Below are positions 2,405 through 19,475 of a DNA stretch of 63,205 nucleotides, piece by piece. The notes beneath the pieces were generated by a model, which did not search any database, was not told the DNA's origin, and was given only the letters and a program-made list of their open reading frames with translations. The translations under genes were made by a program, and so were the position numbers. Numbering within the stretch: position 1 is the stretch's first letter; every line of letters starts with the position of its first letter. Source of the DNA: an uncultured Gammaproteobacteria bacterium (GTDB lineage Bacteria > Patescibacteriota > Patescibacteriia > Magasanikbacterales > UBA922); assembly GCA_964612105.1 (NCBI GenBank), contig CAZTEU010000004.1, forward strand, positions 60,897-124,101, read 5' to 3'.

Positions 2405-3142
2405 ATGGGCAATGAAATAAAACTACTACTAGTGCAGGTTCGCAAAGAACAAGAAATGGCAGACCATGAATTTTCTGTTATAGCGCGTACAGCAGAGCTT
2501 CCAGAAGATAGCTTTGATCGTATTAACGTTGTAAAAGGGGAAAAAATAGAACTAGAAAAGCTAAAAGAATACGATGCAGTAATTATTGGAGGCTCTGGAG
2601 GGTTTTCTGTGCTTGGTGGAGATAGTTTTAACGAACACCTCAAGGATATAACAAGATACTGCAAGGAAAACAACATACCATTTCTCGGGCTTTGTTATGG
2701 TTTCCAGATAGCTGTACAAGCTTTAGGGGGGAAAGTAATCAATGATCTATCAAGCATGGAAACAGGAACATTTGTAGCAAAACGCACAGATAATTCAGAT
2801 AACGATCCTCTAATTGGCACACTACCAAAAGAGTTTCCGGTTGCTTGTGGTAGGCAGGACAGGGCAGAGATTCTACCAGAAGGGGTTGCAAACTATGTAT
2901 CGACAGAAAAGTGTCCTTATCATTACATTACATTCCCTGGAACTAACTTTTTTGCAGCACAGTTCCATCCAGAGCTTTGGAAGAGGGAAGATAATCTGGT
3001 GCGTATAACATTCTACAGAGAAAAATATGGTTTGAGTGAGGAAGAGTATAATAAACAGACCGAATTATTCTCAGATGCTCCAGAAAGTGCAAAAATATTG
3101 AGTAATTTTATGCAGAACGTTGTTATAGCAAACAAAAGATAG
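2405..3142 (+). CDS. Class I glutamine amidotransferase-like protein
   Basis: GLCYGFQ nucleophile elbow and QFHPE His-Glu motif. Confidence 0.85.
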   Translation: MGNEIKLLLVQVRKEQEMADHEFSVIARTAELPEDSFDRINVVKGEKIELEKLKEYDAVIIGGSGGFSVLGGDSFNEHLKDITRYCKENNIPFLGLCYGFQIAVQALGGKVINDLSSMETGTFVAKRTDNSDNDPLIGTLPKEFPVACGRQDRAEILPEGVANYVSTEKCPYHYITFPGTNFFAAQFHPELWKREDNLVRITFYREKYGLSEEEYNKQTELFSDAPESAKILSNFMQNVVIANKR

Positions 3143-5014: not shown

Positions 5015-5084
5015 AGGGGGAGACGATCGTGAAAACAGTAGGGATCGTCAAACTCAAAACAACACCTGTAAAGGTGTTTTTTTG
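5015..5084 (+). repeat. 70-bp direct repeat, copy 1 (hairpin plus terminator)
   Basis: Identical to 5430-5499; GACGATC/GATCGTC stem, then AACACCT-GTAA-AGGTGTT-T run. Confidence 0.9.
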
Positions 5085-5244
5085 TTTTATGACATTAGAA
5101 AAATAATTAATTCAGTTGATTTTAAACGAGCATCTATTGACAGCCGGCCGTTTTTGCGCTACGCTAACATCACTTAATCCGAGCCTAGAAATATAAACCT
5201 ACGGCTGCGGAAATTAGCGCTATATGCGCAGAGAGGTGAGAGTG

Positions 5245-5429: not shown

Positions 5430-5499
5430 AGGGGGAGACGATCGTGAAAACAGTAGGGATCGTCAAACTCAAAACAACACCTGTAAAGGTGTTTTTTTG
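5430..5499 (+). repeat. 70-bp direct repeat, copy 2
   Basis: Identical to 5015-5084. Confidence 0.9.
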
Positions 5500-5581
5500 A
5501 TCTAGGATTGAGGGGTGCTAGAAGCGAGTATTTATTGACTTCCCTAGCTATTCTCTATAAAATATGTTTTAGGAGGTAAAA

Positions 5582-5797: not shown

Positions 5798-5917
5798 GGT
5801 GGCACTCATGGTCTTTGCAGACAAAGGGAGCCCGAACACTCACGATGCACGAGCATACGGAGAAAGTTCGGGGCATCATAAAGAACACCTATAAAGGTGT
5901 TTTTTTGATATAAAGAT

Positions 5918-5945
5918 AAACGGGCTTATTAGAGGGCGTTAGAGC
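5918..5945. repeat. Array core copy A (degenerate, 10 mismatches)
   Basis: AAACGGGCTTATTAGAGGGCGTTAGAGC followed by TTTTTGTAC as after copy B. Confidence 0.6.
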
Positions 5946-5953
5946 TTTTTGTA

Positions 5954-6679
5954 CTACTTATTCTGCTCCCAAAGCATTGTAAACATAGCATCAAAAATAT
6001 CCACCATTGCTGGAACAGCAATAACCACAGCGAGGGAAGAAAGTTCTGGGCTCACTATCAACACCTTGTCTTTAAAAATATCCATCGTACTTTTGAAACC
6101 ATATTTCTTTGGTAAAAATTTCACCTCGCGTAACAGCTCCTTACTTGTAGGACTATCTTTTCTGGATTCCTCTGTAAGAAGAAGTTTTGTCTTTATTTTT
6201 GCCTTTGCTCTGTCTTTTCTGTATTGCACAAAGAATTCTTTATCCAATCCTTGCCAATGCTTTGCTGTTCCAATAATCTTGTACTCTTTTCCTTTATGCT
6301 CTTCTAACACTTCGTCATAAAACTTTTTTAATTCGTCCACTGTTTCAATAAATCTAAGCCCAACCATGTTGAGCTGTTTTTTTTCTAGTGATTCTAGAGA
6401 GGGGATAAGGTCTTCAAAAGAGGACACCTTCTTTTTGTAATGGTCTGCCACTCGTTGGGGCTTGTCTGCGTAAAATAACTGCTTATTCTTTCTGTAATAC
6501 ATCGTCACAAACCCTTTTTTTGACAGAGCCTTAAGAGTTGCGTACACGGTTGTGCGTTTTATACCCACATCTTTGGCTACCGCACTAGCAATAGCTCCGC
6601 CAGAGCGTAGAAGCGAGACATATATGTCTGCTTCTTGGTCAGAGAGCCCAAGATCCTTTAATGCTTGTTTTGAGGCCAT
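5954..6679 (-). CDS. TrmB-like HTH transcriptional regulator
   Basis: LKDLGLSDQEADIYVSLL...IKRTTVYATLKAL winged-HTH N-terminus. Confidence 0.85.
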   Translation of the reverse strand: MASKQALKDLGLSDQEADIYVSLLRSGGAIASAVAKDVGIKRTTVYATLKALSKKGFVTMYYRKNKQLFYADKPQRVADHYKKKVSSFEDLIPSLESLEKKQLNMVGLRFIETVDELKKFYDEVLEEHKGKEYKIIGTAKHWQGLDKEFFVQYRKDRAKAKIKTKLLLTEESRKDSPTSKELLREVKFLPKKYGFKSTMDIFKDKVLIVSPELSSLAVVIAVPAMVDIFDAMFTMLWEQNK

Positions 6680-6723
6680 ATTACTGTTGTCTAAATATTA
6701 AGACACTTTTTTACTATGCTTAT

Positions 6724-6800
6724 ATTATAGCTTATTTTAGCCATATTGTCAAGCCCTTATGTCTAAAACGGTTGACAAAAGCGGGAAAATAGGGTATAAT
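6724..6800. promoter_or_regulatory. Divergent sigma70 promoters
   Basis: Minus: TTGACA (6752-6747)-17-TATAAT (6729-6724); plus: TTGACA (6772-6777)-17-TATAAT (6795-6800). Confidence 0.8.
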
Positions 6801-6847
6801 GCTCTGTTAACAATCAAGAAGGTTGGAACAAAACATCGCTCTTTAAA

Positions 6848-6938
6848 ACATTCCCGCCCCCACCCATCTGCTTGGAGAGAGGCATATGAGTGGAGGCAGG
6901 GAATTATCCTTGGACCAAACGACCCTGGGAGGGGAAAA
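6848..6938 (+). ncRNA. Conserved structured 5' leader, copy 1
   Basis: Aligns without gaps to 9776-9686 with compensatory base-pair changes. Confidence 0.65.
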
Positions 6939-7490
6939 ATGTGTAAGAAAACCATTTCTATCGTTCAGGCAGTGCGTATGTCCGAGCTCGGTGAGGATGA
7001 GGTGATCATCACGCCAGTCATCGTGGGTCGCAAGCGCGTTTCCGCACTCGTGGAGTTCCGCGCAGCACCTGGGCTCGCAACACTGGTGGATTACCGTGAC
7101 GTCTATCACGGTACCAGAGGTATCCTGCTTGTTGCTGGGCGCGCATTTTACAATGTGTGTGGTTGCTGCCCAGCGCGACGCCCGGATGGGTTGCCTCGGG
7201 AGTACAAGGTCTATGAGGTCTTCCTTACGGGACGTCGAGAGAGGGAGGACATTCCCCACCTCGTTAAGCACTACAACGATGCCTATGCGGAGGGGCTTCG
7301 GAAGGCGATCGCACGTTCCGGTGTGAAAACGGTGGCCGTACGCGAGGCGGGCGAGTTCCAGAGCAAGTTCCGAGATCTCGGTGCGGAGATCGTGGAGCAC
7401 AACAAGTTCCGAAAGCATCTCAAGTGGGATCTCCCCGCGCGTGAGGTGGAGTCGATCTTGGATCGGCTCAAATACATCAAGGAGGACTAG
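6939..7490 (+). CDS. GC-rich orphan protein (183 aa)
   Basis: ATG after GGGAGGGG SD; the longer track ORF runs through the promoter and leader. Confidence 0.7.
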   Translation: MCKKTISIVQAVRMSELGEDEVIITPVIVGRKRVSALVEFRAAPGLATLVDYRDVYHGTRGILLVAGRAFYNVCGCCPARRPDGLPREYKVYEVFLTGRREREDIPHLVKHYNDAYAEGLRKAIARSGVKTVAVREAGEFQSKFRDLGAEIVEHNKFRKHLKWDLPAREVESILDRLKYIKED

Positions 7491-7636
7491 TCGCCGACAA
7501 GCGACAACAACAAAGGTTAAATGGCCGAGTACCTATACAAAATCTCGGCCCAATTCAAAAGAACATCTCACAAAGGTGTTCTTTTGTTTTAGGTTATTTG
7601 TTGTATGGTATAATTACTTCGTTATCAAATATTAAT

Positions 7637-9019
7637 ATGAGTTCAATTCTAATATTATTAGGAATAATCTTTTCCATTTTTGTAATTATACGTCCGTTTA
7701 GGGTTGGTAAAATTAAGATAGACATGGCTTCTGGACCCCTGCTTGTCCTGCTTGTTCTGTTGTTAATTAGGGTAATAGACCTAGATACAATATCTTTTGG
7801 AATATTAGGTGATGGACAAATAAAACCATGGGAAATAATGATAATATTCTTTTCTGTGGCATATGTGAGTATTAGTACAGATGTGACAGGTATTTTTGAT
7901 TATCTTGCGTATAAGGTTGTGCAGGCAGCAAAAGGAAGTGGAATAAAATTATTTGTGTTCTTCTACCTGTTTGCTGGAGTGTTAAGTATTTTTACATCCA
8001 ACGATATAGTTATACTTACGCTAACACCAATAATTTTCTACCTAAGTAAACATGCAAAAATTAATATTCTTCCTCTTTTGTTTGCAGAGTTTTTTGCTGC
8101 AAACACAATGAGCATGTTTTTGTATATAGACAATCCAACAAATATAATGGTTGTAAGTTCGTCAGGGATTGGATTTCTTGAATATGTAAAAGTAATGTGG
8201 TTACCAACGGTTGTTGCTGGTGTAAGCACAATCACTCTTCTTTATCTGGTGTTTAGGAACAAAATTACTAGGAAGTACAAAAGAACCAAAGCAACCATGT
8301 TTGAAGTGCGTAATTGGTTTGATGCAGTATTAAGCAGTGGGCTACTCCTTACAATGCTTATATTCCTTTCTGTTTCTCAGCACGTTGGAATGGATATTTG
8401 GAAAATAACTTTGTTTTTTTGTGTAGTGTTTATTGCAGAAGACATTTGTTTTGGTCTGTACTACAGAATGAGAGAACATAGTCTTACAGACACGCAAAAG
8501 AAAAAGAGTTTGGATGTGTTTAATATTCCAAAAGAGAAGAACGAGTTCTTAATTGCACTAAGAAGAATGCCATGGAAAATATTCCCATTTATTTTTACAT
8601 TCTTTGTGCTAGTGCAAGCATTAAATGATGTGGGTGTGATCTCGTCTATTGCTGTTTTTGTTTCTTCGTTTGCTACTTCACTTTGGTCCAGCATACTAGG
8701 CGTTGGCGCACTAAGTATAGTTTTGGCTAATGTTATGAATAATCAGCCAATGACAATTTTACTCCTAAACGTGCTATTAGATGATAGCTTTAGTCCGACA
8801 GGGATTGTTCATCAGGGGGCAGTATATGCTGTAATAGTTGCAAGTAATTTAGGGGCAAACATTACAATTGTTGGAGCTTTAGCTGGGTTAATGTGGAGAA
8901 AAATTCTAAGGACAAAGAATATAGAAATTTCGTATCTAGACTTTCTAAAGGTCGGAGTTCTAATTACTCCAATTGTGTTCTTAATAACAATAGCTACTCT
9001 TTATTTTGTTATTGCTTAA
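7637..9019 (+). CDS. ArsB/NhaD (ion transporter superfamily) permease
   Basis: SIFTSNDIVILTLTP, NPTNI, ANVMNNQP and ASNLGANITIVGALAGLMW motifs. Confidence 0.85.
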   Translation: MSSILILLGIIFSIFVIIRPFRVGKIKIDMASGPLLVLLVLLLIRVIDLDTISFGILGDGQIKPWEIMIIFFSVAYVSISTDVTGIFDYLAYKVVQAAKGSGIKLFVFFYLFAGVLSIFTSNDIVILTLTPIIFYLSKHAKINILPLLFAEFFAANTMSMFLYIDNPTNIMVVSSSGIGFLEYVKVMWLPTVVAGVSTITLLYLVFRNKITRKYKRTKATMFEVRNWFDAVLSSGLLLTMLIFLSVSQHVGMDIWKITLFFCVVFIAEDICFGLYYRMREHSLTDTQKKKSLDVFNIPKEKNEFLIALRRMPWKIFPFIFTFFVLVQALNDVGVISSIAVFVSSFATSLWSSILGVGALSIVLANVMNNQPMTILLLNVLLDDSFSPTGIVHQGAVYAVIVASNLGANITIVGALAGLMWRKILRTKNIEISYLDFLKVGVLITPIVFLITIATLYFVIA

Positions 9020-9031
9020 TCTTACACATAC

Positions 9032-9091
9032 AAAACAACGCCTTATTAGGCGCTGTTTTTGTTTGAGCTGGATACTAGAGGACGTTAGAAC
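9032..9091. repeat. Array junction B: hairpin plus 28-bp core (9064-9091)
   Basis: AAAACAACGCC/GGCGCTGTTTT then TGAGCTGGATACTAGAGGACGTTAGAAC. Confidence 0.9.
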
Positions 9092-9214
9092 TTTTTGTAC
9101 ACAAAAAATCACCTGATAAGGGTGATTCTTTGTTATCTTTTTTGTACAAACAAGAATGTGCCGAGTTTACGTGACGGCTGCACGGGGTGGCGAGTCCAAT
9201 CTTGCCAATTCCTC

Positions 9215-9685
9215 CTACAGAATTTTGAAGTTGAGCCTCACGGAGACGGACACCAGGTCCACCCCGCCGGCATAGCTGATGTATGCCACGGGAGTGGCAA
9301 CTTTCAGCGTCTTGCTGACTGGGAAGATCGGTACGATCGCCCCGCCAACGGCATAGGTGTTCTTTTTGGGGACCCAGCGCGTCAGTCCAGTGGCGCCAAC
9401 CAAGAAGTGCTTGTTCACTTTCTTGATAGCCCCGACGATCATCTGCGGCTGTACCACCAACTTGGTAGTCGGAGTGAACACTCCAACCTCCAGGAAAGCT
9501 GCCCAACCATCAGCGATGGGTTGTACAGCGTGGATTCCCAGGGCTGCGCCGACAGGCAGATCTTTGTCGACGTTGATGGCCTTTGGGAAAGCCATGTAGG
9601 TTCCCAGACCCAACGAGGCTCCCTGCGCCTCGAAGGCGATGAGGGAACAGAACAACGAAATGAGAAAGAACGAAGTGCGAGTCAT
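9215..9685 (-). CDS. GC-rich secreted orphan with beta-strand-rich (barrel-like) pattern
   Basis: Signal peptide (…AFEAQGA), alternating hydrophobic strands, C-terminal SVSVRLNFKIL. Confidence 0.6.
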   Translation of the reverse strand: MTRTSFFLISLFCSLIAFEAQGASLGLGTYMAFPKAINVDKDLPVGAALGIHAVQPIADGWAAFLEVGVFTPTTKLVVQPQMIVGAIKKVNKHFLVGATGLTRWVPKKNTYAVGGAIVPIFPVSKTLKVATPVAYISYAGGVDLVSVSVRLNFKIL

Positions 9686-9776
9686 GATTTCCCTCCCAGG
9701 GAAGTGTGGGGTCGGGCTTATTCCCGATCTCCACTCATATGCCTCTCTCTAGGCAGATGGGTGAAAATGGGAATGT
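9686..9776 (-). ncRNA. Conserved structured 5' leader, copy 2
   Basis: Homologous to 6848-6938; promoter TTGACA (9824-9819)-17-TATAAT (9801-9796). Confidence 0.65.
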
Positions 9777-9932
9777 CTTAACTTAATAACACAGCATTAT
9801 ATCATAAAAAACTATACTTGTCAAGTCTTTTTGGCTAAGTAAAGCCAAATATAGTCATTATGTATCTGATAATCAAACTACTTATTTGACAAAATGCCTA
9901 TAAATTAGCATAATACTACTGTCATAAATTAT

Positions 9933-11081
9933 GTGACAGAATATAGTATGAAACTAACGCCCCTAGGTTTTTCAAAAAACGAAGAGAAAGTTTATCTTTC
10001 TTTGTTTGAATTAGGTAAAACTCGTGCTGGAAAAGTGATAGAACACACTTCCCTGCATAGAAATTTGGTCTATACTGCTCTTGAGGCACTTTTGGAGCGT
10101 GATTTAATAACAAAGACACTGCAAGGAGGTGTAAGTGTGTTCTCAGCAAATAATCCAGATAGGTTAGTTGAAGAAATTGAAAGTAAAAAAAGTGAAGCAA
10201 TAGCAATAGCAGAAGAATTAAAGAAGAAAGTTGACCTACAAACAAGAGAAGTTGTAATTTTTGAGGGGGCTGAAGGTATAGAAAGAGCAATGCGCCAGAA
10301 TCTACAAGCTCAAAAAGGAAAAACAGTCTACGCATTGGGTGCTTCCGCAAATAACGAGACATCAGAATCGCAAATGTTTTCAAGAAAATATCATAATGAA
10401 TTGATTGAAAAAGGAATTTCTTTTAAAGCTCTGTACGGAAGAAATGTTGAGGACGGTATTGTTGAAGAAAAAAAGAAATTATCCAACGCAGAAGTAAAAT
10501 ATATGCCAACAAGCATTGAAGCACCCATGTGGTTTAATATTTGTGGGGATGTTAGTTCAATTATTTCAATGGACAAGAACCCCTTGGCAATCAACATAAA
10601 AAGTGAGTCCATTGCGGAAGGATTAAAACAATACTTTAATCACTTATGGAATCAAAAAGTAATGACATTTGAGGGAGACAGAGGGTTTAAACATGCATTT
10701 GGTGATATTTTAAAAACACTCCAAAGAGGAGATGAGCTAATGATTTTGGGAATTCCTGAATTTGATCAAGAGTTTATAAATATGATAAGGGATTTTCATA
10801 AAAAAAGAGCAGGGCAGGGAATTATTTCTAGAATACTGTTAAATGAGGGTGCAAAAGATATGGGAGAGACGCTTAGAAAAATTGCACACACCAAAATTAA
10901 ATATATGCAGCGCGGTGTAGTTACTCCTGCTGCCCTCTTAATTTACAAAAATAAAACATTAATTAGTCTGCCAAGCAGGAGGACTTTTATGCAGATAGAT
11001 GACAAAGAGACTACGCAGTCTTTCACACACCACTTCAATGAGCTGTGGAGTACAAAAGAAAAACAAGATTTAAAAATGTAG
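9933..11081 (+). CDS. TrmB-like regulator with duplicated C-terminal effector domain
   Basis: LGFSKNEEKVYLSLFELG HTH; two VVIFEG/VMTFEG-initiated domains. Confidence 0.8.
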   Translation: MTEYSMKLTPLGFSKNEEKVYLSLFELGKTRAGKVIEHTSLHRNLVYTALEALLERDLITKTLQGGVSVFSANNPDRLVEEIESKKSEAIAIAEELKKKVDLQTREVVIFEGAEGIERAMRQNLQAQKGKTVYALGASANNETSESQMFSRKYHNELIEKGISFKALYGRNVEDGIVEEKKKLSNAEVKYMPTSIEAPMWFNICGDVSSIISMDKNPLAINIKSESIAEGLKQYFNHLWNQKVMTFEGDRGFKHAFGDILKTLQRGDELMILGIPEFDQEFINMIRDFHKKRAGQGIISRILLNEGAKDMGETLRKIAHTKIKYMQRGVVTPAALLIYKNKTLISLPSRRTFMQIDDKETTQSFTHHFNELWSTKEKQDLKM

Positions 11082-11098
11082 ATTTGCAATATTCATAA

Positions 11099-11159
11099 AA
11101 AAACAACGCTAATCCCAGCGCTGTTTTTATTTGAGGTGGTTACTGGATGATGTTAGAAC
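11099..11159. repeat. Array junction C (core 11132-11159)
   Basis: Hairpin plus TGAGGTGGTTACTGGATGATGTTAGAAC; overlaps the stop codon of the neighbouring toxin-like gene. Confidence 0.85.
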
Positions 11160-11524
11160 TGGGTCTTCTCAAAGTTCCCCTGATCAATGTCTTCGATTGC
11201 ACTATCTAATGAATTAAGAATTAGAATCTTTGCTTTTTTATTATTCATTGACAGGTTTTCGCCAAACACCTTATCCTTTTTTAATCTAATCACAATTGGA
11301 ATGACAAGATTCTTTTGTTTATACATGAAAACAATTAATCTACCTGCCACCTTGTGAACCATTCTTAATTTAAATAGTTCTCCACCTGTATATCCCAGGT
11401 TCGAGAGTCGTACTTTCTGGCCACGCAATTTGTTTACAGCTTTTTTGATATCCTCCAACGAATAATATTTTTTAATCAGTTTGTATTCTTTTTGAAGAAA
11501 TGATTTCGTCAAAATCAGTATCAT
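11153..11524 (-). CDS. Putative RelE/ParE-like toxin
   Basis: Small basic protein, MILILTKSF start, LFKLRM..GRLIVF; downstream of an RHH-like gene. Confidence 0.5.
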   Translation of the reverse strand: MILILTKSFLQKEYKLIKKYYSLEDIKKAVNKLRGQKVRLSNLGYTGGELFKLRMVHKVAGRLIVFMYKQKNLVIPIVIRLKKDKVFGENLSMNNKKAKILILNSLDSAIEDIDQGNFEKTQF

Positions 11525-11529
11525 ACCTC

Positions 11530-11775
11530 CTATATATTTATTTTTTTGAGTGACTTACTTAGCTTATTTGTTTTTTCTATAATTTCTTTATCTGCAAATA
11601 CATCATCGTAGAATTCATTTTTTGCGTGCAAAGAAATACGCAAATCATCGTGAATATAAGCACGCATTGCCATTGTTAGTAATGCTTTTAGTGTTATTCC
11701 CTCTCTTTTTGTTTTTTTGAGTGCCTTCTCTTTTAGTTTTGCATCGCTCATGAATGTGACTTGTGTTTGGTTCAT
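11530..11775 (-). CDS. Putative RHH antitoxin (RelB/DinJ-like)
   Basis: QVTFMSDAKLKEKALKKTKREGITLKALL; own TTGACA-17-TATAGT promoter. Confidence 0.55.
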   Translation of the reverse strand: MNQTQVTFMSDAKLKEKALKKTKREGITLKALLTMAMRAYIHDDLRISLHAKNEFYDDVFADKEIIEKTNKLSKSLKKINI

Positions 11776-11836
11776 ATTGCTATATAGTTTATTACTACAT
11801 TTAAACTATATATTATGATTGAGTGTTTGTCAAGTA

Positions 11837-11897
11837 AAAAACAATACTAATCCTAGCGCTGTTTTAATTTGGGCTGGCTACTAGAGGACGTTAGAAC
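11837..11897. repeat. Array junction D (core 11870-11897)
   Basis: Hairpin plus TGGGCTGGCTACTAGAGGACGTTAGAAC. Confidence 0.9.
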
Positions 11898-12029
11898 TGG
11901 AATAATAAAAAAAGAACAAATTGTTCTTGTATGAAAGTCCATGTCCGCCCGCCCGTGCTTGTTGCTCGATGAGCGGACACGGACGGACGCGCTCCTTCTG
12001 GGCTCGTGCAGCGAAGGGGTGTAACACGG

Positions 12030-12335
12030 TCAGACTCTTGCGTGCTTTTGTACACGGGCTGCTTCGCTGGTAAGTCGTGGCTCTACGATCGAGGTGTCCT
12101 TTCCGTAACCTCGTGACCCATTGTTGACTATACAGCCGTTTTCCCAGGTGAGGTGGTGTGTGTGGCCTCTGTGAATGCAGCGGGCCACTTTGATCGGCTC
12201 CCAGTCTGCAAATCCTCTGGCGTATCCGACAAACAACCACTCAATTCCATCATTCCCCACAAGACTGTCTCCGCAGGTCAAACTCTCAAACTCATCTTGT
12301 GTGATTGCAGTCTTTTCAATGAGGTGTTGTAACAT
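12030..12335 (-). CDS. GC-rich orphan
   Basis: GGAGG SD upstream of ATG; 101-aa ORF. Confidence 0.6.
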   Translation of the reverse strand: MLQHLIEKTAITQDEFESLTCGDSLVGNDGIEWLFVGYARGFADWEPIKVARCIHRGHTHHLTWENGCIVNNGSRGYGKDTSIVEPRLTSEAARVQKHARV

Positions 12336-12602
12336 ATTGTCCTCCGTGCAAGGGGTATAAGCAAGTCAGGGTAGTATAATAATAGATGTGGGAGAAATAG
12401 GCAAGTTGGGATACAATGAGATGTATTGTGGTTGTAATAGAAAATAGCTTAAGTTAGTCAAACAAACGCTTAGACCTATTGACAAAAGGAGTTTTTTGTG
12501 TTAAGGTCTTTCCAGTTTTTCCTCTCGAGGATTTATCGTCAAGTGTGAAAGTCATACAAAGCGCGGTGATGGTCTCTGAGGGGTAATTCCTAGGAGGTCA
12601 TT

Positions 12603-12851
12603 ATGACAGCGCAGCCAGTAGAGGTCACTATCCTGTGGAATGGAGGATGGGATAGATACCTCGTCGACACAAGTATCACCGTCAGTGTTCCTGAAGCAGA
12701 GCTTCAGGGGAACGCCCGAATGTGGCCAACATTCGAGTGTGAGGAAGCCGAAGGTTCGTTCCTCAAAGCAAGCTTTAGTTCGGTCTTGAAAAAGTCCGTT
12801 ACCGAAGGTTGTGGGGTTCGCATTCTGAGGCGCCTCGGCGGCGGCGACTAA
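12603..12851 (+). CDS. GC-rich orphan
   Basis: AGGAGG SD; TTGACA at about 12479; about 100-nt leader. Confidence 0.6.
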   Translation: MTAQPVEVTILWNGGWDRYLVDTSITVSVPEAELQGNARMWPTFECEEAEGSFLKASFSSVLKKSVTEGCGVRILRRLGGGD

Positions 12852-12900
12852 TCGATGGCAAAAAAGCGGTACCTTTCGGGGTGCCGCTATTCTTTTCTAA

Positions 12901-12961
12901 AAAAACAACACCAGTCTTAATGTTGTTTTTAGGTGAGCCGAGTACTAGAGAGCGTCAGAGC
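12901..12961. repeat. Array junction E (core 12934-12961, 7 mismatches)
   Basis: Hairpin AAAAACAACA/TGTTGTTTTT plus TGAGCCGAGTACTAGAGAGCGTCAGAGC. Confidence 0.75.
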
Positions 12962-12981
12962 TGGGTGGGTGGTGTAAATTT

Positions 12982-13245
12982 CTACTTATAGACTTGCTCG
13001 TGTCCACCAACATCAATAAATATTACGTGAGTGTAGTTATTGTATTCTTCGAATATTAAGCGTATATTTCCCGAGACTGACACGGCTCTTTTTCCCAGCA
13101 TCAGACCTCGAAGTTTGTGGTTTTTTAGTGAAGTGTCGCTTGGGTCTTTTATAAGCCTTTCTATTGTTTTTGTAATTTTACTCTGAAGTTTGCATGGAAG
13201 CTTCTTAAATTGTTTTGTAAATCTTTTACTATAACTAATCTTCAT
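12982..13245 (-). CDS. RelE/YafQ-family type II toxin
   Basis: MKISYSKRFTKQFKKL...LKNHKLRG...VGGHEQVY. Confidence 0.9.
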   Translation of the reverse strand: MKISYSKRFTKQFKKLPCKLQSKITKTIERLIKDPSDTSLKNHKLRGLMLGKRAVSVSGNIRLIFEEYNNYTHVIFIDVGGHEQVYK

Positions 13246-13517
13246 AGTTTTTTCAGATAAGCTATCGCTTCATCTGCCTCCATTGGCTCGGTCACATTTA
13301 TTCCTTTCTTTGCCTCTTTACCTGCTTTTAATATTTCTTTTTCTTGTTGTACAGTGAGGCCGTTTTCTGTAATAAGAGGAAAAGGAACACCTTTTTGTAA
13401 TGTTATTTGTTTTAAGTAGAGTTTAATAGCTGTACTCATGTCTAATCCAAGACGATCTAGTATTTTTTTTGCAGAGGTCTTTGTTTTTTTGTCTACACGA
13501 ATTTGTATTGTAGTCAT
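13242..13517 (-). CDS. RelB/DinJ-family antitoxin
   Basis: MTTIQIRVDKKTK...LGLDMSTAIKLYLKQI...GVPF; 4-bp overlap with toxin. Confidence 0.9.
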   Translation of the reverse strand: MTTIQIRVDKKTKTSAKKILDRLGLDMSTAIKLYLKQITLQKGVPFPLITENGLTVQQEKEILKAGKEAKKGINVTEPMEADEAIAYLKKL

Positions 13518-13592
13518 AAATATATATTTGTATAAATACATAATAACATGTCTGTAGTGATGTTGTCAATACAGCTAATATTATTTCATCTT

Positions 13593-13697
13593 TCCAGACT
13601 GTCCCGCTACCCAATGTTAGAATAAAAAACACTGCCGTATGTAGCAGTGTTTTAGCTCTTTCAGAAAATTGAGCTGGCTACCAGAGGACGTTAGAAC
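13593..13697. repeat. Array junction F, long type (core 13670-13697)
   Basis: TTCCAG…CCCAATGTTAGAAT, hairpin AAAACACTGC/GCAGTGTTTT, then TGAGCTGGCTACCAGAGGACGTTAGAAC. Confidence 0.9.
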
Positions 13698-13702
13698 CCA
13701 AG

Positions 13703-14545
13703 TTAGGGCAAGAATTTAATGCTATCAACCATTTCATCTAATATTGTTTCAAAATTATTTATATCACCTCTTTCAATAATGGTTTGCGAGGTGATAACTA
13801 TGCTACTAAGTTCATTTTTTGGATTAAATAAGTAGTATTGTGCTGCTAGGGGTCCAGGAGATGGGTATATCGGAGAAAAACTTACTTTTGCTACTGTTAT
13901 ACCATGGGTGTTTTGAGATATGGTGCATTTTTTAATATCGCCCCACACCATTAGAGATTTACCGCTGTTTTTATAATCATATTCGCCGCTATCGATCCAC
14001 TTACAAACAGACTCAACCTTTTCTTTGTTCAGCCCCAGAGCGTCATCTTCCCAAGATAATCCGCGGTCTCCGCCCAGCCCGGATTTTCCATCAGTTATTG
14101 CTATGTATCGAGGGCTTCCAAAAAAATTTGAGAGTGTTAGATAGTAAAAGGGAATTCCCTCTTTTCCTTGTTCAACAATTTCTCTTGGGCTTATGCCATG
14201 CGGTTGCTGCACCTGTCCGATTTCACCAAAAGAGGCTGGGTACTCAAACGTGATGCCTAGATTTGAATCTGAAAATGCTTTTTTAATTGTGTTCTCAGGG
14301 TTGTTTATTAAATTAGTGAGTCTATCTATCTGCTCTTTTTTTATTCTTTTGGCTTCGTAATATCTGTCTGAATTTTCTTTGTTTGGGTCAATAACAGTTT
14401 GTTTAGGTGTCTCATCTTCACTAGAAATTTTTAAGGAGAAGTCCCCTTTGGTGTTTTGAGTAGAAGACATAATGACAAACACTAGCGCGAAAGATGTGGC
14501 CAGCAAAGGAATCCAAAATTCCTGACTCTTAAAATCTATCTTCAT
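13703..14545 (-). CDS. Membrane-anchored/secreted hypothetical protein
   Basis: Single N-terminal hydrophobic segment; 280 aa. Confidence 0.7.
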   Translation of the reverse strand: MKIDFKSQEFWIPLLATSFALVFVIMSSTQNTKGDFSLKISSEDETPKQTVIDPNKENSDRYYEAKRIKKEQIDRLTNLINNPENTIKKAFSDSNLGITFEYPASFGEIGQVQQPHGISPREIVEQGKEGIPFYYLTLSNFFGSPRYIAITDGKSGLGGDRGLSWEDDALGLNKEKVESVCKWIDSGEYDYKNSGKSLMVWGDIKKCTISQNTHGITVAKVSFSPIYPSPGPLAAQYYLFNPKNELSSIVITSQTIIERGDINNFETILDEMVDSIKFLP

Positions 14546-14604
14546 ATTTTTTATTTAATATGTTGTGATTATACCACAGTTCGGCATTCCAGTCCCCAGT
14601 AACA

Positions 14605-14665
14605 AAAAACAACGCTAATCTTAGCGCTGTTTTCATTTGAGCTGGCTACTAGAGGGCGTTAGAAC
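14605..14665. repeat. Array junction G (core 14638-14665)
   Basis: Hairpin plus TGAGCTGGCTACTAGAGGGCGTTAGAAC. Confidence 0.9.
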
Positions 14666-14672
14666 TTTTTGT

Positions 14673-15206
14673 CTACTTAGGGCCTAGTAAATCCTTGTGA
14701 AATTCATACAAAGAGCTTCCAACCATTTCAATTGCTTGTGTTTCTTTGTTATCGCTATTTATCAATACAGATTGAGCTTTTTCTGTGTCAACAAGCGCCA
14801 TTTCTACTGTTCCGTCTTTGTGCCCCTCCATGTAATACCCTCTTTTCTTTATCTTTTTAAGAATATTCGCATAATCTGAGTTTGTCATTGAGCGAACTCT
14901 CCAGACCTCATGTTTTTTGTGCTTGTTAAATTCCTCAAATATTTTATCGACTGTAAAAAGACGTTCGTTCACCTTCTGCCTGAAATTATCTGGATCCTCT
15001 ATTTTGTAATAATATCTGTTTCCCATTTTTGAGTGGTTAATAAAACCCTTTTCTTCCAAAGAGCGCAGATATTCCTGGCAACTTGTTCGTAGTATTCCTG
15101 TTTTGTCCGCGAGCTCAGATACTTTTGCACTTCCAAGTCTAAGAAGAGTTCTATATACAAGAATTTCTTTATCAGAAAAATTAAATTGTCTTAATAATTG
15201 TTCCAT
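14673..15206 (-). CDS. TrmB-like HTH regulator
   Basis: FNFSDKEILVYRTLLRLG...ILRTSCQEYLRSLEEKGF. Confidence 0.8.
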   Translation of the reverse strand: MEQLLRQFNFSDKEILVYRTLLRLGSAKVSELADKTGILRTSCQEYLRSLEEKGFINHSKMGNRYYYKIEDPDNFRQKVNERLFTVDKIFEEFNKHKKHEVWRVRSMTNSDYANILKKIKKRGYYMEGHKDGTVEMALVDTEKAQSVLINSDNKETQAIEMVGSSLYEFHKDLLGPK

Positions 15207-15832
15207 ATATTTTGGTACATTTCGCTAACCTCTTTATTCTTAAAACCAAATACTTGTAATTGGTCCCCAAACTCTACAAAAGCAACCTTGTTACTCCAAA
15301 TAAATAGCATTACATCTCCTTTTCGTTCTTTCACCTTTGGTGCAATTCCTTTTTGGTTGGATCTTTTGTGGTAGAAGGGCCAATAATCTCCAAGGTAATT
15401 AGCCAAGTGACTACTTTGTCCAATTATATGCATTTTCTTTTTTTCTCGAAGTGATTTCTCCAGCAATATCTTTACTCCATGAACATCTTTGGAATATGAG
15501 CGCAGTCTTAAAGGTTGCTCTGTCTTCTTATATTCCTTATGCATCGCAGGCACAAACTTCCTTACAGCACTCTCTTGCCTTTTCACATACTGCTTTAATG
15601 CGCCAATAGGTAGGGCGCGGAAGTCCAATACATCTCTGTATTTAGTAGAAGTGACAAGCTTCTTTTTTTTGAGTGACTCTAATACTAAATATGTGGTTGG
15701 TCTTTTAGTCCCCGCTCTTTTTGATATACCTAAAACACCGCCCTTCTTCATTGAGAGTAGGGCGCTGTATACAAGAGCTTCCTTGTGAGAAAGTCCAAGG
15801 TTTTCTAGGGCTTTTATACGCTTAATATCCAT
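15191..15832 (-). CDS. TrmB-like HTH regulator
   Basis: LENLGLSHKEALVYSALL...TKRPTTYLVLESL. Confidence 0.8.
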   Translation of the reverse strand: MDIKRIKALENLGLSHKEALVYSALLSMKKGGVLGISKRAGTKRPTTYLVLESLKKKKLVTSTKYRDVLDFRALPIGALKQYVKRQESAVRKFVPAMHKEYKKTEQPLRLRSYSKDVHGVKILLEKSLREKKKMHIIGQSSHLANYLGDYWPFYHKRSNQKGIAPKVKERKGDVMLFIWSNKVAFVEFGDQLQVFGFKNKEVSEMYQNIWNNY

Positions 15833-15932
15833 ATTGCTGTCAATAATAACATCAATTATCAATATATAAATAATATTATATAGTGCACTGTCCGTCAAGG
15901 GGGCGGACATTCATTCTTTTTTGGAGGTCGTT

Positions 15933-16574
15933 ATGCTTGTTCATTCTACTAACTGCAGAAGGCGGACGATTCCGCGCCTGAAAAGACCGCGGAGCTGTTT
16001 CCGCGTTCCCACGAATACCGTGCTGGTCGTGGTCGATCCGCAGAAAGCCTTCGGTTCGGTCGTGTCAGTTCCGCATGTCGAAGAGGCGGTCTCCAACATG
16101 CGTAAGGTGATCTCTTACTGGCGCAAGCGCGGAGGGAAGGTGATCCTCACGAGGCACATCTACAAGGATGAGAGTTGCGTCGGATCGGTCTCAGATTTCA
16201 TCCCGCCGATTTTCGGCGTGTTGAGGGAAGGTTCGCCGATGGGCGAGTTCCATGATGGCATCTGGTTCGATGGCGTCATCATCATCGACAAAACCGAGTT
16301 CAACGCCTTCATCGGGACGACGCTCGAGAAGCAGCTCCGCAAGCTCGGCGCCTCCCATTTCCTCGTCTGCGGTCTCACGACCCCGATCTGCGTGGAGGGT
16401 ACTGCGCGTGGCGGTGTTGAGCGTGGTTTCAAGGTGACGGTCGTCTCGGACGCTTGTGCATCTCAGCCCATGGGTGAGGAATCCGCTCGGGAGGCACACG
16501 ACTCTGCCATCGTTCGACTCGGCTACATCTTCGCTAAGGTGGTCAGCACCGAGGATCTCCTGTCGCTGCAGTAG
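15933..16574 (+). CDS. Isochorismatase-like cysteine hydrolase (GC-rich)
   Basis: D-K-C triad motifs VVVDPQ, IDK, TPICV; GGAGG SD; terminator AACATCT/AGGTGTT at about 16620. Confidence 0.85.
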   Translation: MLVHSTNCRRRTIPRLKRPRSCFRVPTNTVLVVVDPQKAFGSVVSVPHVEEAVSNMRKVISYWRKRGGKVILTRHIYKDESCVGSVSDFIPPIFGVLREGSPMGEFHDGIWFDGVIIIDKTEFNAFIGTTLEKQLRKLGASHFLVCGLTTPICVEGTARGGVERGFKVTVVSDACASQPMGEESAREAHDSAIVRLGYIFAKVVSTEDLLSLQ

Positions 16575-16639
16575 GCAAAAAGGTTTCCGCGTTTTCCTGA
16601 AAAAACGCGAGCACAAAAGAACATCTGTAAAGGTGTTTT

Positions 16640-16770
16640 TTTGTTTAGTTCCAACCTCCCCACACCATTCCAGTCGCCAGTACCCAAGGTTAGAACCAAA
16701 AACACTGCTAGATTTAGCAGTGTTTTAACTCTTTCGGGAAAATGAGCTGGCTACTAGAGGACGTTAGAAA
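16640..16770. repeat. Array junction H, long type (core 16743-16770)
   Basis: Same layout as F; TGAGCTGGCTACTAGAGGACGTTAGAAA. Confidence 0.9.
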
Positions 16771-16947
16771 TGGAATTGTACTACAGTGACTTAGTTTGTC
16801 TGCTAAGTCCCCACAACATGCTGAGTGTTGTTCTCATGAATTCTACAAAATCACCACCCTCAACTAAAATCAATTTTTTGGTTTGGAGAATATTCAAAAA
16901 TACTGCATAAATGCAGTATTTTTGAAGCGAATGTGAAAATCATGATT

Positions 16948-17424
16948 TTAATCAAGTTTTTTGAAATTAAGCCAAGTCCCGCTTGCCGACTTTTCATCTT
17001 CAGGGAGAAGGCCAACAAGAGCCTCTGTAAGACTATTGTTTTCATGGCCTGCTCTGAACAGAGCCCTTTCATCATCAATTCTCTCACCCTCTCTGAAGAC
17101 AGACCCCTCATGTAAATCTGCAGCCATTTGACGTAGAACACTATGTTGATGAGCCAGAACAATTTGTTTTGCAATGAGCTTCATATAAGATTCGTCTGCT
17201 TCTTCAATGGCATCGCCATAAGGGTCAGACTCTCTACTGGGAAGATGTTCTTTCCCGAGTTCACGAACCTCAGCAAGAACATCATCAAATGTCGGAACTT
17301 TATCTTGGTAAGCACGGTCAAGTTCCTCAAAATCAAGTCGATTATCCATCTCTGATTCTTGGTTAGAGGTATCGCTCTCAATATCTTTTTTGGGTACTTT
17401 CCTCCCCATTCCTTCATTATTCAT
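16948..17424 (-). CDS. Acidic hypothetical protein, copy 1
   Basis: 158-aa ORF; start uncertain. Confidence 0.6.
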   Translation of the reverse strand: MNNEGMGRKVPKKDIESDTSNQESEMDNRLDFEELDRAYQDKVPTFDDVLAEVRELGKEHLPSRESDPYGDAIEEADESYMKLIAKQIVLAHQHSVLRQMAADLHEGSVFREGERIDDERALFRAGHENNSLTEALVGLLPEDEKSASGTWLNFKKLD

Positions 17425-17544
17425 AATGAAATAATATAATTTATTAATAATATATTAACTATACACTAATTAATCCAAAGTTTCAAGACCTTTTGAATGC
17501 TGACCAATTCCTGTGGTAATTAATCAGACGTGTGGCTGACATTT

Positions 17545-17675
17545 CTTGTTCAGTTCTAATCTCCTCACACCATTCCAGTCGCCAGCACCCAAGGTTAGAA
17601 CCAAAAACACTGCTAGATTTAGCAGTGTTTTAACTCTTTCGGGAAAATGAGCTGGCTACTAGAGGACGTTAGAAA
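17545..17675. repeat. Array junction I (core 17648-17675)
   Basis: Core identical to H. Confidence 0.9.
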
Positions 17676-17852
17676 TGGAATTGTACTACAGTGACTTAGT
17701 TTGTCTGCTAAGTCCCCACAACATGCTGAGTGTTGTTCTCATGAATTCTACAAAATCACCACCCTCAACTAAAATCAATTTTTTGGTTTGGAGAATATTC
17801 AAAAATACTGCATAAATGCAGTATTTTTGAAGCGAATGTGAAAATCATGATT

Positions 17853-18329
17853 TTAATCAAGTTTTTTGAAATTAAGCCAAGTCCCGCTTGCCGACTTTTC
17901 ATCTTCAGGGAGAAGGCCAACAAGAGCCTCTGTAAGACTATTGTTTTCATGGCCTGCTCTGAACAGAGCCCTTTCATCATCAATTCTCTCACCCTCTCTG
18001 AAGACAGACCCCTCATGTAAATCTGCAGCCATTTGACGTAGAACACTATGTTGATGAGCCAGAACAATTTGTTTTGCAATGAGCTTCATATAAGATTCGT
18101 CTGCTTCTTCAATGGCATCGCCATAAGGGTCAGACTCTCTACTGGGAAGATGTTCTTTCCCGAGTTCACGAACCTCAGCAAGAACATCATCAAATGTCGG
18201 AACTTTATCTTGGTAAGCACGGTCAAGTTCCTCAAAATCAAGTCGATTATCCATCTCTGATTCTTGGTTAGAGGTATCGCTCTCAATATCTTTTTTGGGT
18301 ACTTTCCTCCCCATTCCTTCATTATTCAT
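17853..18329 (-). CDS. Acidic hypothetical protein, copy 2
   Basis: Identical to 16948..17424. Confidence 0.6.
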   Translation of the reverse strand: MNNEGMGRKVPKKDIESDTSNQESEMDNRLDFEELDRAYQDKVPTFDDVLAEVRELGKEHLPSRESDPYGDAIEEADESYMKLIAKQIVLAHQHSVLRQMAADLHEGSVFREGERIDDERALFRAGHENNSLTEALVGLLPEDEKSASGTWLNFKKLD

Positions 18330-18553
18330 AATGAAATAATATAATTTATTAATAATATATTAACTATACACTAATTAATCCAAAGTTTCAAGACCTTTTG
18401 AATGCTGACCAATTCCTGTGGTAATTAATCAGACGTGTGGCTGACATTTCTTGTTCAGTTCTAATCTCCTCACACCATTCCAGTCGCCAGCACCCAAGGT
18501 TAGAACCAAAAACACTGCTAGATTTAGCAGTGTTTTAAGGGTTTTGGAAAATG

Positions 18554-18625
18554 AGCGGACGACCGGAATCGAACCGGCATCATCGGCTTGGAAGGCCGAG
18601 ATAATAACCATTATACGACGTCCGC
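18554..18625 (-). tRNA. tRNA-Gly(TCC)
   Basis: Acceptor GCGGACG/CGTCCGC, anticodon loop CTTCCAA, T-loop TTCGATT. Confidence 0.95.
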
Positions 18626-18743: not shown

Positions 18744-19475
18744 ATGATGAATAAAAAGATATTTGTTTTACAGTTTCGTACAGATCAGTCGGAGGCACAT
18801 GACCAGCTTTGCCTTAACCAAGCTCTAGAGGGAATGAATGTATCTTTCGTGTACTTCAATCCCACAAGGAATGAAATGCCAGAAAATCTGGATAATGCAG
18901 ACGCGTTAATACTTAGTGGGTCTGGAGAGTTTTTTGTAGGTAAGGAGCCAGGAAAAGATACTTGGATGCCACGTGTACTAGAATTAATGGATGAGGCCTT
19001 AGAAAAAGATGTTCCAATGTTAGGGCTATGCTTTGGTTCTCAGCTGTTAGCTAAGCATCAAGGAGCAAACATTACAGACGATAAGAAGCACATGGAGCTG
19101 GGAACTTTTGAAATTACAATGAACGAGAAAGCCAAAGATGATCCAATATTTTCTGCAATGCCAGAAAAATACTATGTGATACTAGGACACAAAGAAACAC
19201 CAATAGATATACCAGACAATTTGGAAATATTAGCAAGCTCAGAAAGAGTGCCTGCACAGGCAATCAGAGTAAAAGGAAAAAAAGCCTGGTCTGTCCTTTT
19301 CCATCCGGAAGTAAACAAGAAGCAGTTGCTAGAACGTTTGGAAATGTATCCAGAATACATGGAAGACCCAAGTAAGATAGATGAGTTTGAGGCTCAGCTG
19401 AATGAGGTTCCTCATGCACAAGAAGTTATATTATCATTTGCAAGATTTGTTATTAGTAATGAAATAAAAAGATAG
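18744..19475 (+). CDS. Class I glutamine amidotransferase-like protein
   Basis: GLCFGSQ and LFHPE. Confidence 0.85.
   Translation: MMNKKIFVLQFRTDQSEAHDQLCLNQALEGMNVSFVYFNPTRNEMPENLDNADALILSGSGEFFVGKEPGKDTWMPRVLELMDEALEKDVPMLGLCFGSQLLAKHQGANITDDKKHMELGTFEITMNEKAKDDPIFSAMPEKYYVILGHKETPIDIPDNLEILASSERVPAQAIRVKGKKAWSVLFHPEVNKKQLLERLEMYPEYMEDPSKIDEFEAQLNEVPHAQEVILSFARFVISNEIKR

Follow-up and report, generated by a model that had tools for sequence, protein, structure and literature searches.

Cassette array behind a tRNA-Gly gene of a CPR bacterium: probable scars of elements carrying a large serine recombinase

Introduction

The stretch of 63,205 nucleotides analysed here (the window; C4:60897-124101 of the genome searched, 945 kb in 8 contigs) comes from a tiny marine CPR bacterium, which the relatives of its EF-P place in Candidatus Magasanikbacteria, a lineage of the CPR (Patescibacteria). 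Behind its gene for tRNA-Gly(tcc), a series of small gene cassettes is lined up, separated by copies of a short repeat, the core. At the end of this array, the tRNA gene's 3' end occupies the position of a core in front of the same junction sequence. What are the cores, how are they related to the tRNA end, and which enzyme may have built the array?

Results

The tRNA-Gly(tcc) gene and the array

The gene for tRNA-Gly(tcc) (18553-18625, minus strand; detected by ARAGORN, Rfam tRNA model 62.5 bits) is the only one of the tcc type genome-wide according to ARAGORN. It has a perfect promoter of the sigma-70 type (TTGACA-17-TATAAT, 18672-18644). The array as a whole (5918-18552, minus strand, 12.6 kb) comprises nine core-plus-hairpin units, with core starts at 5918, 9064, 11132, 11870, 12934, 13670, 14638, 16743 and 17648. 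On the plus strand the core reads GAGCTGGCTACTAGAGGACGTTAGAAC; its nine copies are co-oriented, each adjoins a terminator-like hairpin, and no copy was found elsewhere in the genome. Core H (16743-16772) and core I (17648-17677), both on the minus strand, are identical. The unit of core I and its hairpin scores 73.7 bits with R1, our covariance model of core plus hairpin.

The cassettes between the cores encode TrmB-type regulators, an ArsB/CitMHS transporter, a RelB/YafQ pair, an isochorismatase and orphan proteins, and have consensus promoters of their own. The tRNA-proximal cassette is a 158-aa orphan gene (17853-18329, minus strand; duplicate at 16948-17424), for the product of which a database search returned no match except itself. 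The RelB/YafQ-type toxin-antitoxin pair (12982-13541) has a distant homologue in the corresponding island of G001, the only relative of the same genus.

A junction of 105 nt is present in three copies (16637-16741, 17542-17646 and 18447-18551) at a spacing of exactly 905 nt. Copies 1 and 2 adjoin the 28-nt core, and copy 3 adjoins the 3' end of tRNA-Gly(tcc). An earlier, sequence-only reading of the locus had pointed to this arrangement before cores H and I and before the tRNA, and the observation is confirmed: it is real and exceeds chance by far. Three occurrences of the 30-nt pattern TTCCAGTCGCCAGNACCCAAGGTTAGAACC compare with none expected, the three sites of GCTCATTTTCC in the 945-kb genome are all at the junction copies, and the hairpin AAAACACTGCTA/TAGCAGTGTTTT is found at every copy. 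On the minus strand, tRNA-Gly(tcc), core H and core I all terminate with GCTCA followed by TTTTCC, again as that reading had described. The order in tRNA sense is the same in all three junctions: GCTCA TTTTCC, a patch of 9-10 nt and the hairpin AAAACACTGCTA...TAGCAGTGTTTT. The patch reads AAAACCCTT at the tRNA copy versus CGAAAGAGTT at the core copies.

GCTCA (18552-18556, minus strand; TGAGC on the plus strand) consists of the last acceptor bases, the discriminator and the CA of tRNA-Gly(tcc). It is the sole block common to the tRNA end and every core; a second copy of the tRNA 3' end was not found anywhere in the genome. Because GCTCA is the only block common to all cores, we infer that the exact crossover dinucleotide lies within GCTC(C)A, as judged from sequence comparison. 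The sharing of GCTCA could partly result from gene conversion among tandem units and not from a requirement for identity at the crossover.

A 905-bp duplication within the array

The three junction copies are not the traces of three integrations. The sequences at 16682-17632 and 17587-18537 are 100% identical. The middle junction (17542-17646, minus strand) is a hybrid and marks the joint of a tandem duplication of 905 bp: on its left it is identical to the tRNA-adjacent junction J2 (18447-18551), and on its right, with the patch CTCTTTCGGG and the core side, to junction J1 after core H (16637-16741, about 90% identical to J2; all on the minus strand). Such a hybrid joint is the predicted product of an unequal crossover inside the 46-nt identical hairpin segment and would not be expected from an exchange at GCTCA. 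The third junction copy thus stems from a recent homologous tandem duplication of 905 bp and not from a further integration.

In other assemblies of the same population a single copy is present (tRNA-junction-gene-core-junction), with no other difference. The short contigs L026 and L028, from other samples, begin in the hybrid junction and have a private deletion of 1 nt in common. The single-copy assemblies together with the hybrid-joint contigs show that the duplication is a real polymorphism. When strain variants of the array were sought, none of the other assemblies examined, which came from many samples, differed in the order of cassettes. The homologous duplication aside, these assemblies revealed no sign of recent movement in the array.

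The same architecture in related genomes

Searches with exact and degenerate core patterns against 100 relatives, genome contigs and metagenome contigs gave no match. The core is too diverged for pattern search, and relatives were reached by the covariance model only; a search with the hairpin led to core variants in G006, G015 and G034. Full-length matches to R1 of at least 40 bits are present in 22 of 107 genomes of the bacterial family. Among 17 array regions fetched from this family, 13 have a tRNA gene directly upstream and in the same orientation. Anchors of these arrays are tRNA-Gly (tcc, gcc and ccc), tRNA-Thr(ggt), tRNA-Trp(cca) and tRNA-Asn(gtt). In all 13, the tRNA 3' end occupies in the first unit the position that the core has in later units, at equal distance to an often near-identical hairpin.

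The terminal bases of the core match the anchor: cores end with GCTC(C)A behind Gly and Thr tRNAs and with CTGCA behind Trp tRNAs (in two genera), which narrows the shared block of the crossover region to GCTC(C)A for Gly/Thr anchors and to CTGCA for Trp anchors. A single genome, G033, has both forms, with cores ending in GCTCCA at a tRNA-Thr gene that encodes CCA and in CCGCTCA at tRNA-Gly(ccc).

Genus g15 allows a comparison in the style of an empty site. A homologous cassette of this genus consists of hairpin h4, the right arm and a gene of 275 aa. In G015 the cassette is preceded by core2 (...ACTAGGTGGCTCCA|TTGAAAAT...), and in G135 by the 3' end of tRNA-Thr (...GGATGACGGCTCA|GTTAAAAC...), which is a displaced 44-nt copy left by a later classical insertion into the tRNA. 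Homology between the two genomes (78%) starts directly after GGCTC(C)A, so the breakpoint lies at GGCTC(C)A, as had been proposed. Of the 11 nt within or near which the crossover had been placed, just GCTCA matters; the location at or beside it is supported by the g15 breakpoint, and the longer segment as a whole is not.

Could all this be no more than a usual terminator of the tRNA, multiplied within the locus by homologous recombination and gene conversion, with no site-specific event at GCTCA at any time? The hairpin resembles the terminator of the tRNA, hairpins are homogenised within each array, and homologous recombination did act here, as the 905-bp duplication came from a crossover inside the 46-nt identical hairpin segment. 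However, we regard this explanation as very unlikely. The sequence-only reading had asked whether relatives have the same junction behind tRNA-Gly; G001 has a different sequence downstream of tRNA-Gly(tcc), and the junction is absent from this same-genus relative. Moreover, the architecture recurs behind six tRNA species in many genera, the G015/G135 breakpoint is at GGCTC(C)A, and the unit is present as an attP inside a gene on a circular element (see below).

The core as the probable tail of a large serine recombinase gene

Read on the strand opposite to the tRNA, the core encodes a peptide that is conserved in many genera, xS(R/W/S)(L/V)(V/T)x(D/E)V(R/G)T. In core I the plus strand reads ATG AGC TGG CTA CTA GAG GAC GTT AGA (MSWLLEDVR). 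Codon changes are synonymous or conservative (GAC/GAT/GAA/GAG, GTT/GTC/GTG, AGA/AGG, ACT/ACC/ACG), and column entropy is highest at the third codon position (1.16 bits), followed by the first (0.62) and the second (0.26). The motif (D/E)V(R/G)T is encoded by 25 of 34 distinct cores. The core as a real micro-ORF (MSWLLEDVRT) was considered and dropped, because several genomes have no in-frame start codon.

This coding signature also bears on a function at the RNA level, with the core as a conserved 3'-UTR motif that mimics a tRNA end and is processed, or stabilises the mRNA, before the terminator. Indeed, every core lies between a minus-strand gene, on its upstream side, and a terminator hairpin, on its downstream side. 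Yet the orientation of the core is kept beside plus-strand genes too, the core is confined to one locus in the genome, its 3' end varies with the anchor tRNA, and its variation tracks the codon phase of the opposite strand. In an Rfam search the tRNA was the only family matched, and none was matched by the core. We therefore give an RNA element hardly any credence.

Genes for large serine recombinases (LSRs), with Resolvase, Recombinase and Zn ribbon domains, are present in 60 of the 107 family genomes. At the tRNA-proximal end of the array they are convergent to the anchor tRNA in G028, G101 and G103. The 546-aa LSR gene of G028 adjoins tRNA-Gly(tcc) on the opposite strand; its reading frame passes through a box (CGA GTA GAA CCA, RVEP), the hairpin KRKNSHFQTVFS and ACT TGG AGC (TWS) and then continues as tRNA antisense. 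In G101 (tRNA-Thr) and G103 (tRNA-Gly), the LSR frame likewise spans box and hairpin, reaches ...WS or ...VS and goes on as tRNA antisense. In G106, an LSR gene of the same type, at the proximal end of the array, is incomplete because the contig starts within it, and the tRNA falls outside the contig. Another eight LSR genes of the family terminate inside other tRNAs. The counterpart of GCTCA in the LSR genes of relatives is the codon pair TGG AGC or xTG AGC.

A total of 1,710 database homologues of the LSR were retrieved at E <= 1e-20. Most of them end with ...WSG, which represents the integrated form. Two homologues have a different end: P0019 ends with ...KRKNTPLESVFSRWS|SLVMDVRTVVAQLV, its tail being FSRWS|SLVMDVRT...*, and P0021 with ...QWS|CIVRQVST.... 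Both are intact LSR genes in which the core peptide forms the tail. The gene for P0019 is located on 6960-nt contigs from six sequencing runs, which are circular permutations of each other with a 30-nt end overlap, indicating a free circular element of 6.96 kb. R1 matches the 3' end of this gene on the opposite strand with 36.8 bits (E 3.6e-9). In tRNA sense, the attP of the circular element reads CAGTTCTAACATCCATAACCAATGAGCTCCA-TCTTG-hairpin-...-GGTTCTAACC, and this order equals that of the window units. The circle (L205-L208; Logan runs SRR31757423-29) carries the intact LSR gene and about ten small ORFs, and is a candidate for the free form of the cassette-carrying elements. The proposal that the core is the element-side attachment half-site thus gains support from the 13 arrays in which the tRNA end replaces the core, from the g15 comparison and from the attP order of the circular element.

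A similar correspondence applies to the long junction. J2 includes the box GGTTAGAACC (18498-18507) and the hairpin (18509-18536), and its order box-hairpin-xxS is the same as in the intact LSR 3' ends of L078, L202, L203 and L205. J2 would thus be what remains of an LSR gene's last about 35 codons before the crossover (the P' side); its hairpin would now act as terminator of tRNA-Gly, and J1 would be an older LSR 3' relic. At 18507-18576, R1 gives 32.5 bits. In tblastn searches with LSR tails and C-termini, the junction relic of the window gave noise-level E-values and no significant protein similarity; the proposed link between junction and LSR draws on the DNA model and the conserved order. 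The 9-10-nt patch that differs between junction copies lies in variable codons between hairpin and WS, and its difference fits two related yet distinct elements.

The geometry of the sites is in line with an LSR. The loose likeness of GTTCTAAC to a T-loop, noted in the sequence-only reading, held up in the covariance model: the sequences from T-loop to 3' end of several tRNAs align to the core over its full length. From the AGTTC box to GCTC, the core measures 28 nt versus 23 nt from T-loop to GCTC in the tRNA, and three tRNA rows of the model alignment show a single 5-nt gap against the core. In LSRs, the distance of the zinc-ribbon motif from the centre is reportedly about 5 bp greater for attP half-sites than for those of attB, and the 5 additional nucleotides of the core fit this rule. 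A second conserved box (GGTTnnAACC) is located 55-66 nt from GCTCA, too far for a standard LSR half-site. By comparison with relatives, the enzyme behind the array is probably an LSR whose gene spans attP. Core I would then represent the P arm and the displaced 3' tail of the LSR gene, and tRNA-Gly(tcc) would be the anchor of the array, with its segment from T-loop to 3' end serving as B arm of the putative attachment site.

The genome of the window has no match to PF07508 and thus no LSR gene. Together with the invariant order of cassettes, the missing gene makes the array look like a fossil. On the basis of the missing gene we take it to be inactive.

Tyrosine recombinases as an alternative

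Before the LSR genes were considered, we favoured a tyrosine recombinase or Xer acting on a folded site similar to attC. RNAalifold supports the central hairpin only, covariation of the outer boxes is weak and no recombinase or core-like site is co-localised; the evidence for an LSR led us to abandon this reading. In its wider form it assumes an integron-like platform with a tyrosine recombinase encoded elsewhere (Xer or tRNA-targeting integrases) and with core, hairpin and inverted box as the folded site. The units are indeed imperfect palindromes, the outer boxes of which pair in 76% of cells with one compensatory change. Of the four tyrosine recombinases encoded in the genome, two resemble integrases of a 17.8-kb element in a tRNA-Thr gene of G135, with 62% and 52% identity. 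None of the four is encoded within the window, however; no recombinase adjoins any array, and no core-like site adjoins any of the four genes. Arrays are also present in G001 and G015, where just one Xer-type gene is found, and the element of G135 uses a classical 44-nt tRNA repeat with the crossover in the anticodon arm and not the core. Further, a tyrosine recombinase leaves unexplained the coding signature of the core and the in-frame fusions between LSR and anchor tRNA. We consider such a platform improbable.

Two arguments against it concern integrons in particular. An integron-type integrase is absent from the genome: the best match to the integron-integrase model scores 214 bits, where the cut-off is 265, and falls into two separate stretches. 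The second argument is that the cassettes come with promoters of their own. In addition, the boxes GTTCTAAC and GTTAGAAC are one base longer than R'' (RYYYAAC) and R' (GTTRRRY) of attC and depart from the consensus. As IntI is missing, the cassettes are self-promoted and the boxes are unlike attC, the array is not an integron.

The element of G135 (L177, G135:C3:7201-27200) is inserted in tRNA-Thr(ggt) and flanked by the displaced 44-nt copy of the tRNA. Its cargo includes three tyrosine recombinases, a type III restriction-modification pair, an FtsK/SpoIIIE protein and a NERD nuclease. The homologues of its recombinases in the genome of the window (62% and 52%) are encoded at the end of contig C1 (227862) and at the start of C5 (1131).

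Discussion

A model for the origin of the array

We propose that the array probably consists of the scars of LSR elements which integrated serially at the 3' end of tRNA-Gly(tcc) and had their attP inside the 3' end of the LSR gene. With the core as the tail of an LSR gene, the 12.6-kb island appears to be a stack of old insertions. On the free circle, the LSR gene would be antisense to the future tRNA and end with ...ARLEP...KRKNxxxxxFSxWS | S(L/V)Vx(D/E)VRT...stop. The hairpin would be part of the codons that precede the bar, and the bar would lie within TGG AGC, the complement of GCTCCA. The attB would be formed by the tRNA from T-loop to 3' end plus the following sequence. Strand exchange would occur within GCTC(C)A, that is the last acceptor bases, the discriminator and the C(C)A of the tRNA, and the tRNA would thus be preserved.

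After integration, the tRNA would be followed by the hairpin of the element as terminator and then by the truncated LSR gene (P' side). The last about 10-30 codons of the LSR (core, P arm) would land at the far end of the element, against the former neighbour of the tRNA or the previous P' relic. Newer insertions would push older ones outward, and subsequent deletion of the LSR bodies would leave cargo cassettes separated by core-GCTCA-hairpin units. The long junction would be an LSR relic composed of box GGTTAGAACC, hairpin and a degenerate ...xS.

Serial insertion is inferred from the layout of the units and needs a hybrid site, tRNA-GCTCA-P', that can be used again as a target. Canonical LSRs recombine attP with attB only, and attL is no substrate unless a directionality factor is present. 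Repeated insertion at tRNA-GCTCA-P' would therefore need unusual site rules or prior decay of P'. It is conceivable, though rather doubtful, that the right half-site is the same in attP and attB and that the left arm alone differs (tRNA versus core, with the 5-bp offset), so that the target is regenerated and gene capture is reversible. If so, the tRNA would again offer a target after integration, and a site resembling attP would remain at the far end. Recombination between the tRNA end and any of the cores would become possible, and with it the excision of cassette blocks as circles and their reinsertion. Such a system would amount to an integron-like platform that is widespread in CPR bacteria and based on a serine recombinase which sacrifices and restores its own C-terminus, with the element also providing the terminator of an essential tRNA.

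Comparison with known systems

In its working, the system is most similar to SCC/SCCmec with its Ccr LSRs. There, too, insertion by an LSR takes place at the very 3' end of a single conserved gene, tandem composites with short direct repeats in between result from repeated insertions, and many units have no recombinase (pseudo-SCC). The target of SCC is rlmH/orfX, whereas a tRNA gene is used here. In contrast to SCC, attP is located in the recombinase's own reading frame, so that integration truncates the gene; the element supplies the terminator of the target gene, the units mostly contain one to three genes and the hosts are CPR bacteria.

The location of attP within the integrase gene is shared with the archaeal tyrosine integrases of the SSV type (type I), where integration into a tRNA splits the gene (PMC8371274). 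Both leave a gene fragment at each end of the element, and decayed insertions remain as integrase scars beside tRNAs. However, the SSV-type enzyme is a tyrosine integrase of archaeal hosts as opposed to a serine enzyme of CPR bacteria. Its att is a partial tRNA copy with the crossover inside the tRNA, while the core is no tRNA copy and the crossover is placed at the last bases of the tRNA.

Integrons and CALINs resemble the array by co-oriented small cassettes with imperfect palindromes of 60-110 bp in between, by additions at one fixed end with the oldest sites being most degenerate, and by toxin-antitoxin cassettes. The array differs from them in having no IntI, attI or Pc promoter, in its self-promoted cassettes and in a site that is a remnant of a protein-coding sequence. 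Tycheposons (bioRxiv 10.1101/2020.12.28.424599) and Islander-type islands are likewise located at tRNA genes, older elements are displaced outward by newcomers, and decayed elements and leftover pieces of att sites are dispersed over the island. The integrases of these islands are mainly of the tyrosine type, and the repeats copy part of the tRNA. In the present array, the tail of the integrase gene itself forms the repeat, which has just about 5 nt in common with the tRNA. As its repeats are not tRNA copies, the array is not a classical tRNA island; the 44-nt repeat of G135 is a true case of the latter, unlike the array of the window.

In the searchable literature we found no description of this core/tRNA array. 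A gene cut by its own recombination is known for archaeal tyrosine integrases, and no description for serine integrases was found in searchable papers. Such a cut may work as a built-in switch, since the integrated form has a different C-terminus. Some of the smallest bacterial genomes have few recognised mobile elements, and the proposed mechanism may explain how accessory genes build up in them. The serine integrases concerned, a family with more than 1,700 homologues, would target the last bases of tRNA genes and leave scars that can be read as a stratigraphy of past insertions. Its natural pairs of attP and tRNA-end attB are candidate tools for genome engineering.

Further observations at the arrays and in the window

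A recurrent protein was sought across the arrays, and just DEAD-box and other helicases recur, unlinked to the sites. Helicases of about 730-750 aa with C-terminal tandem repeats containing KGW motifs (L075:9097-11352, L088:9791-11974) are cassettes within tRNA-Thr arrays of two genera.

In G001 (L021, G001:C1; 19470-19865 and 11149-11190), the region downstream of tRNA-Gly(tcc) contains two mini-units (xCGCTCCA, 4 nt and a hairpin), and one core-type match of 38.8 bits is located 850 nt away. Short GC-rich palindromes, ACCTGCCTGCCGGCAGGCAGGC, lie beside both tRNA-Gly genes of this genome.

Past the distal end of the array in the window, a different 3' repeat follows small zinc-finger ORFs. 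It consists of a GACGATC/GATCGTC stem and an AACACCT...AGGTGTT terminator and is found at 5015-5092 and 5430-5507, with further positions at 5055, 5470, 5878, 9031, 16614 and 61494. Terminators of this type are found again throughout the window and also in G001. An apparent synteny anchor to G001 at 5874-5915 turned out to be no more than a common type of terminator and was rejected as unreliable. Paralogous class-I glutamine amidotransferase genes are located at 2405-3142 and 18744-19475, beside tRNA-Gly of the gcc and tcc type respectively.
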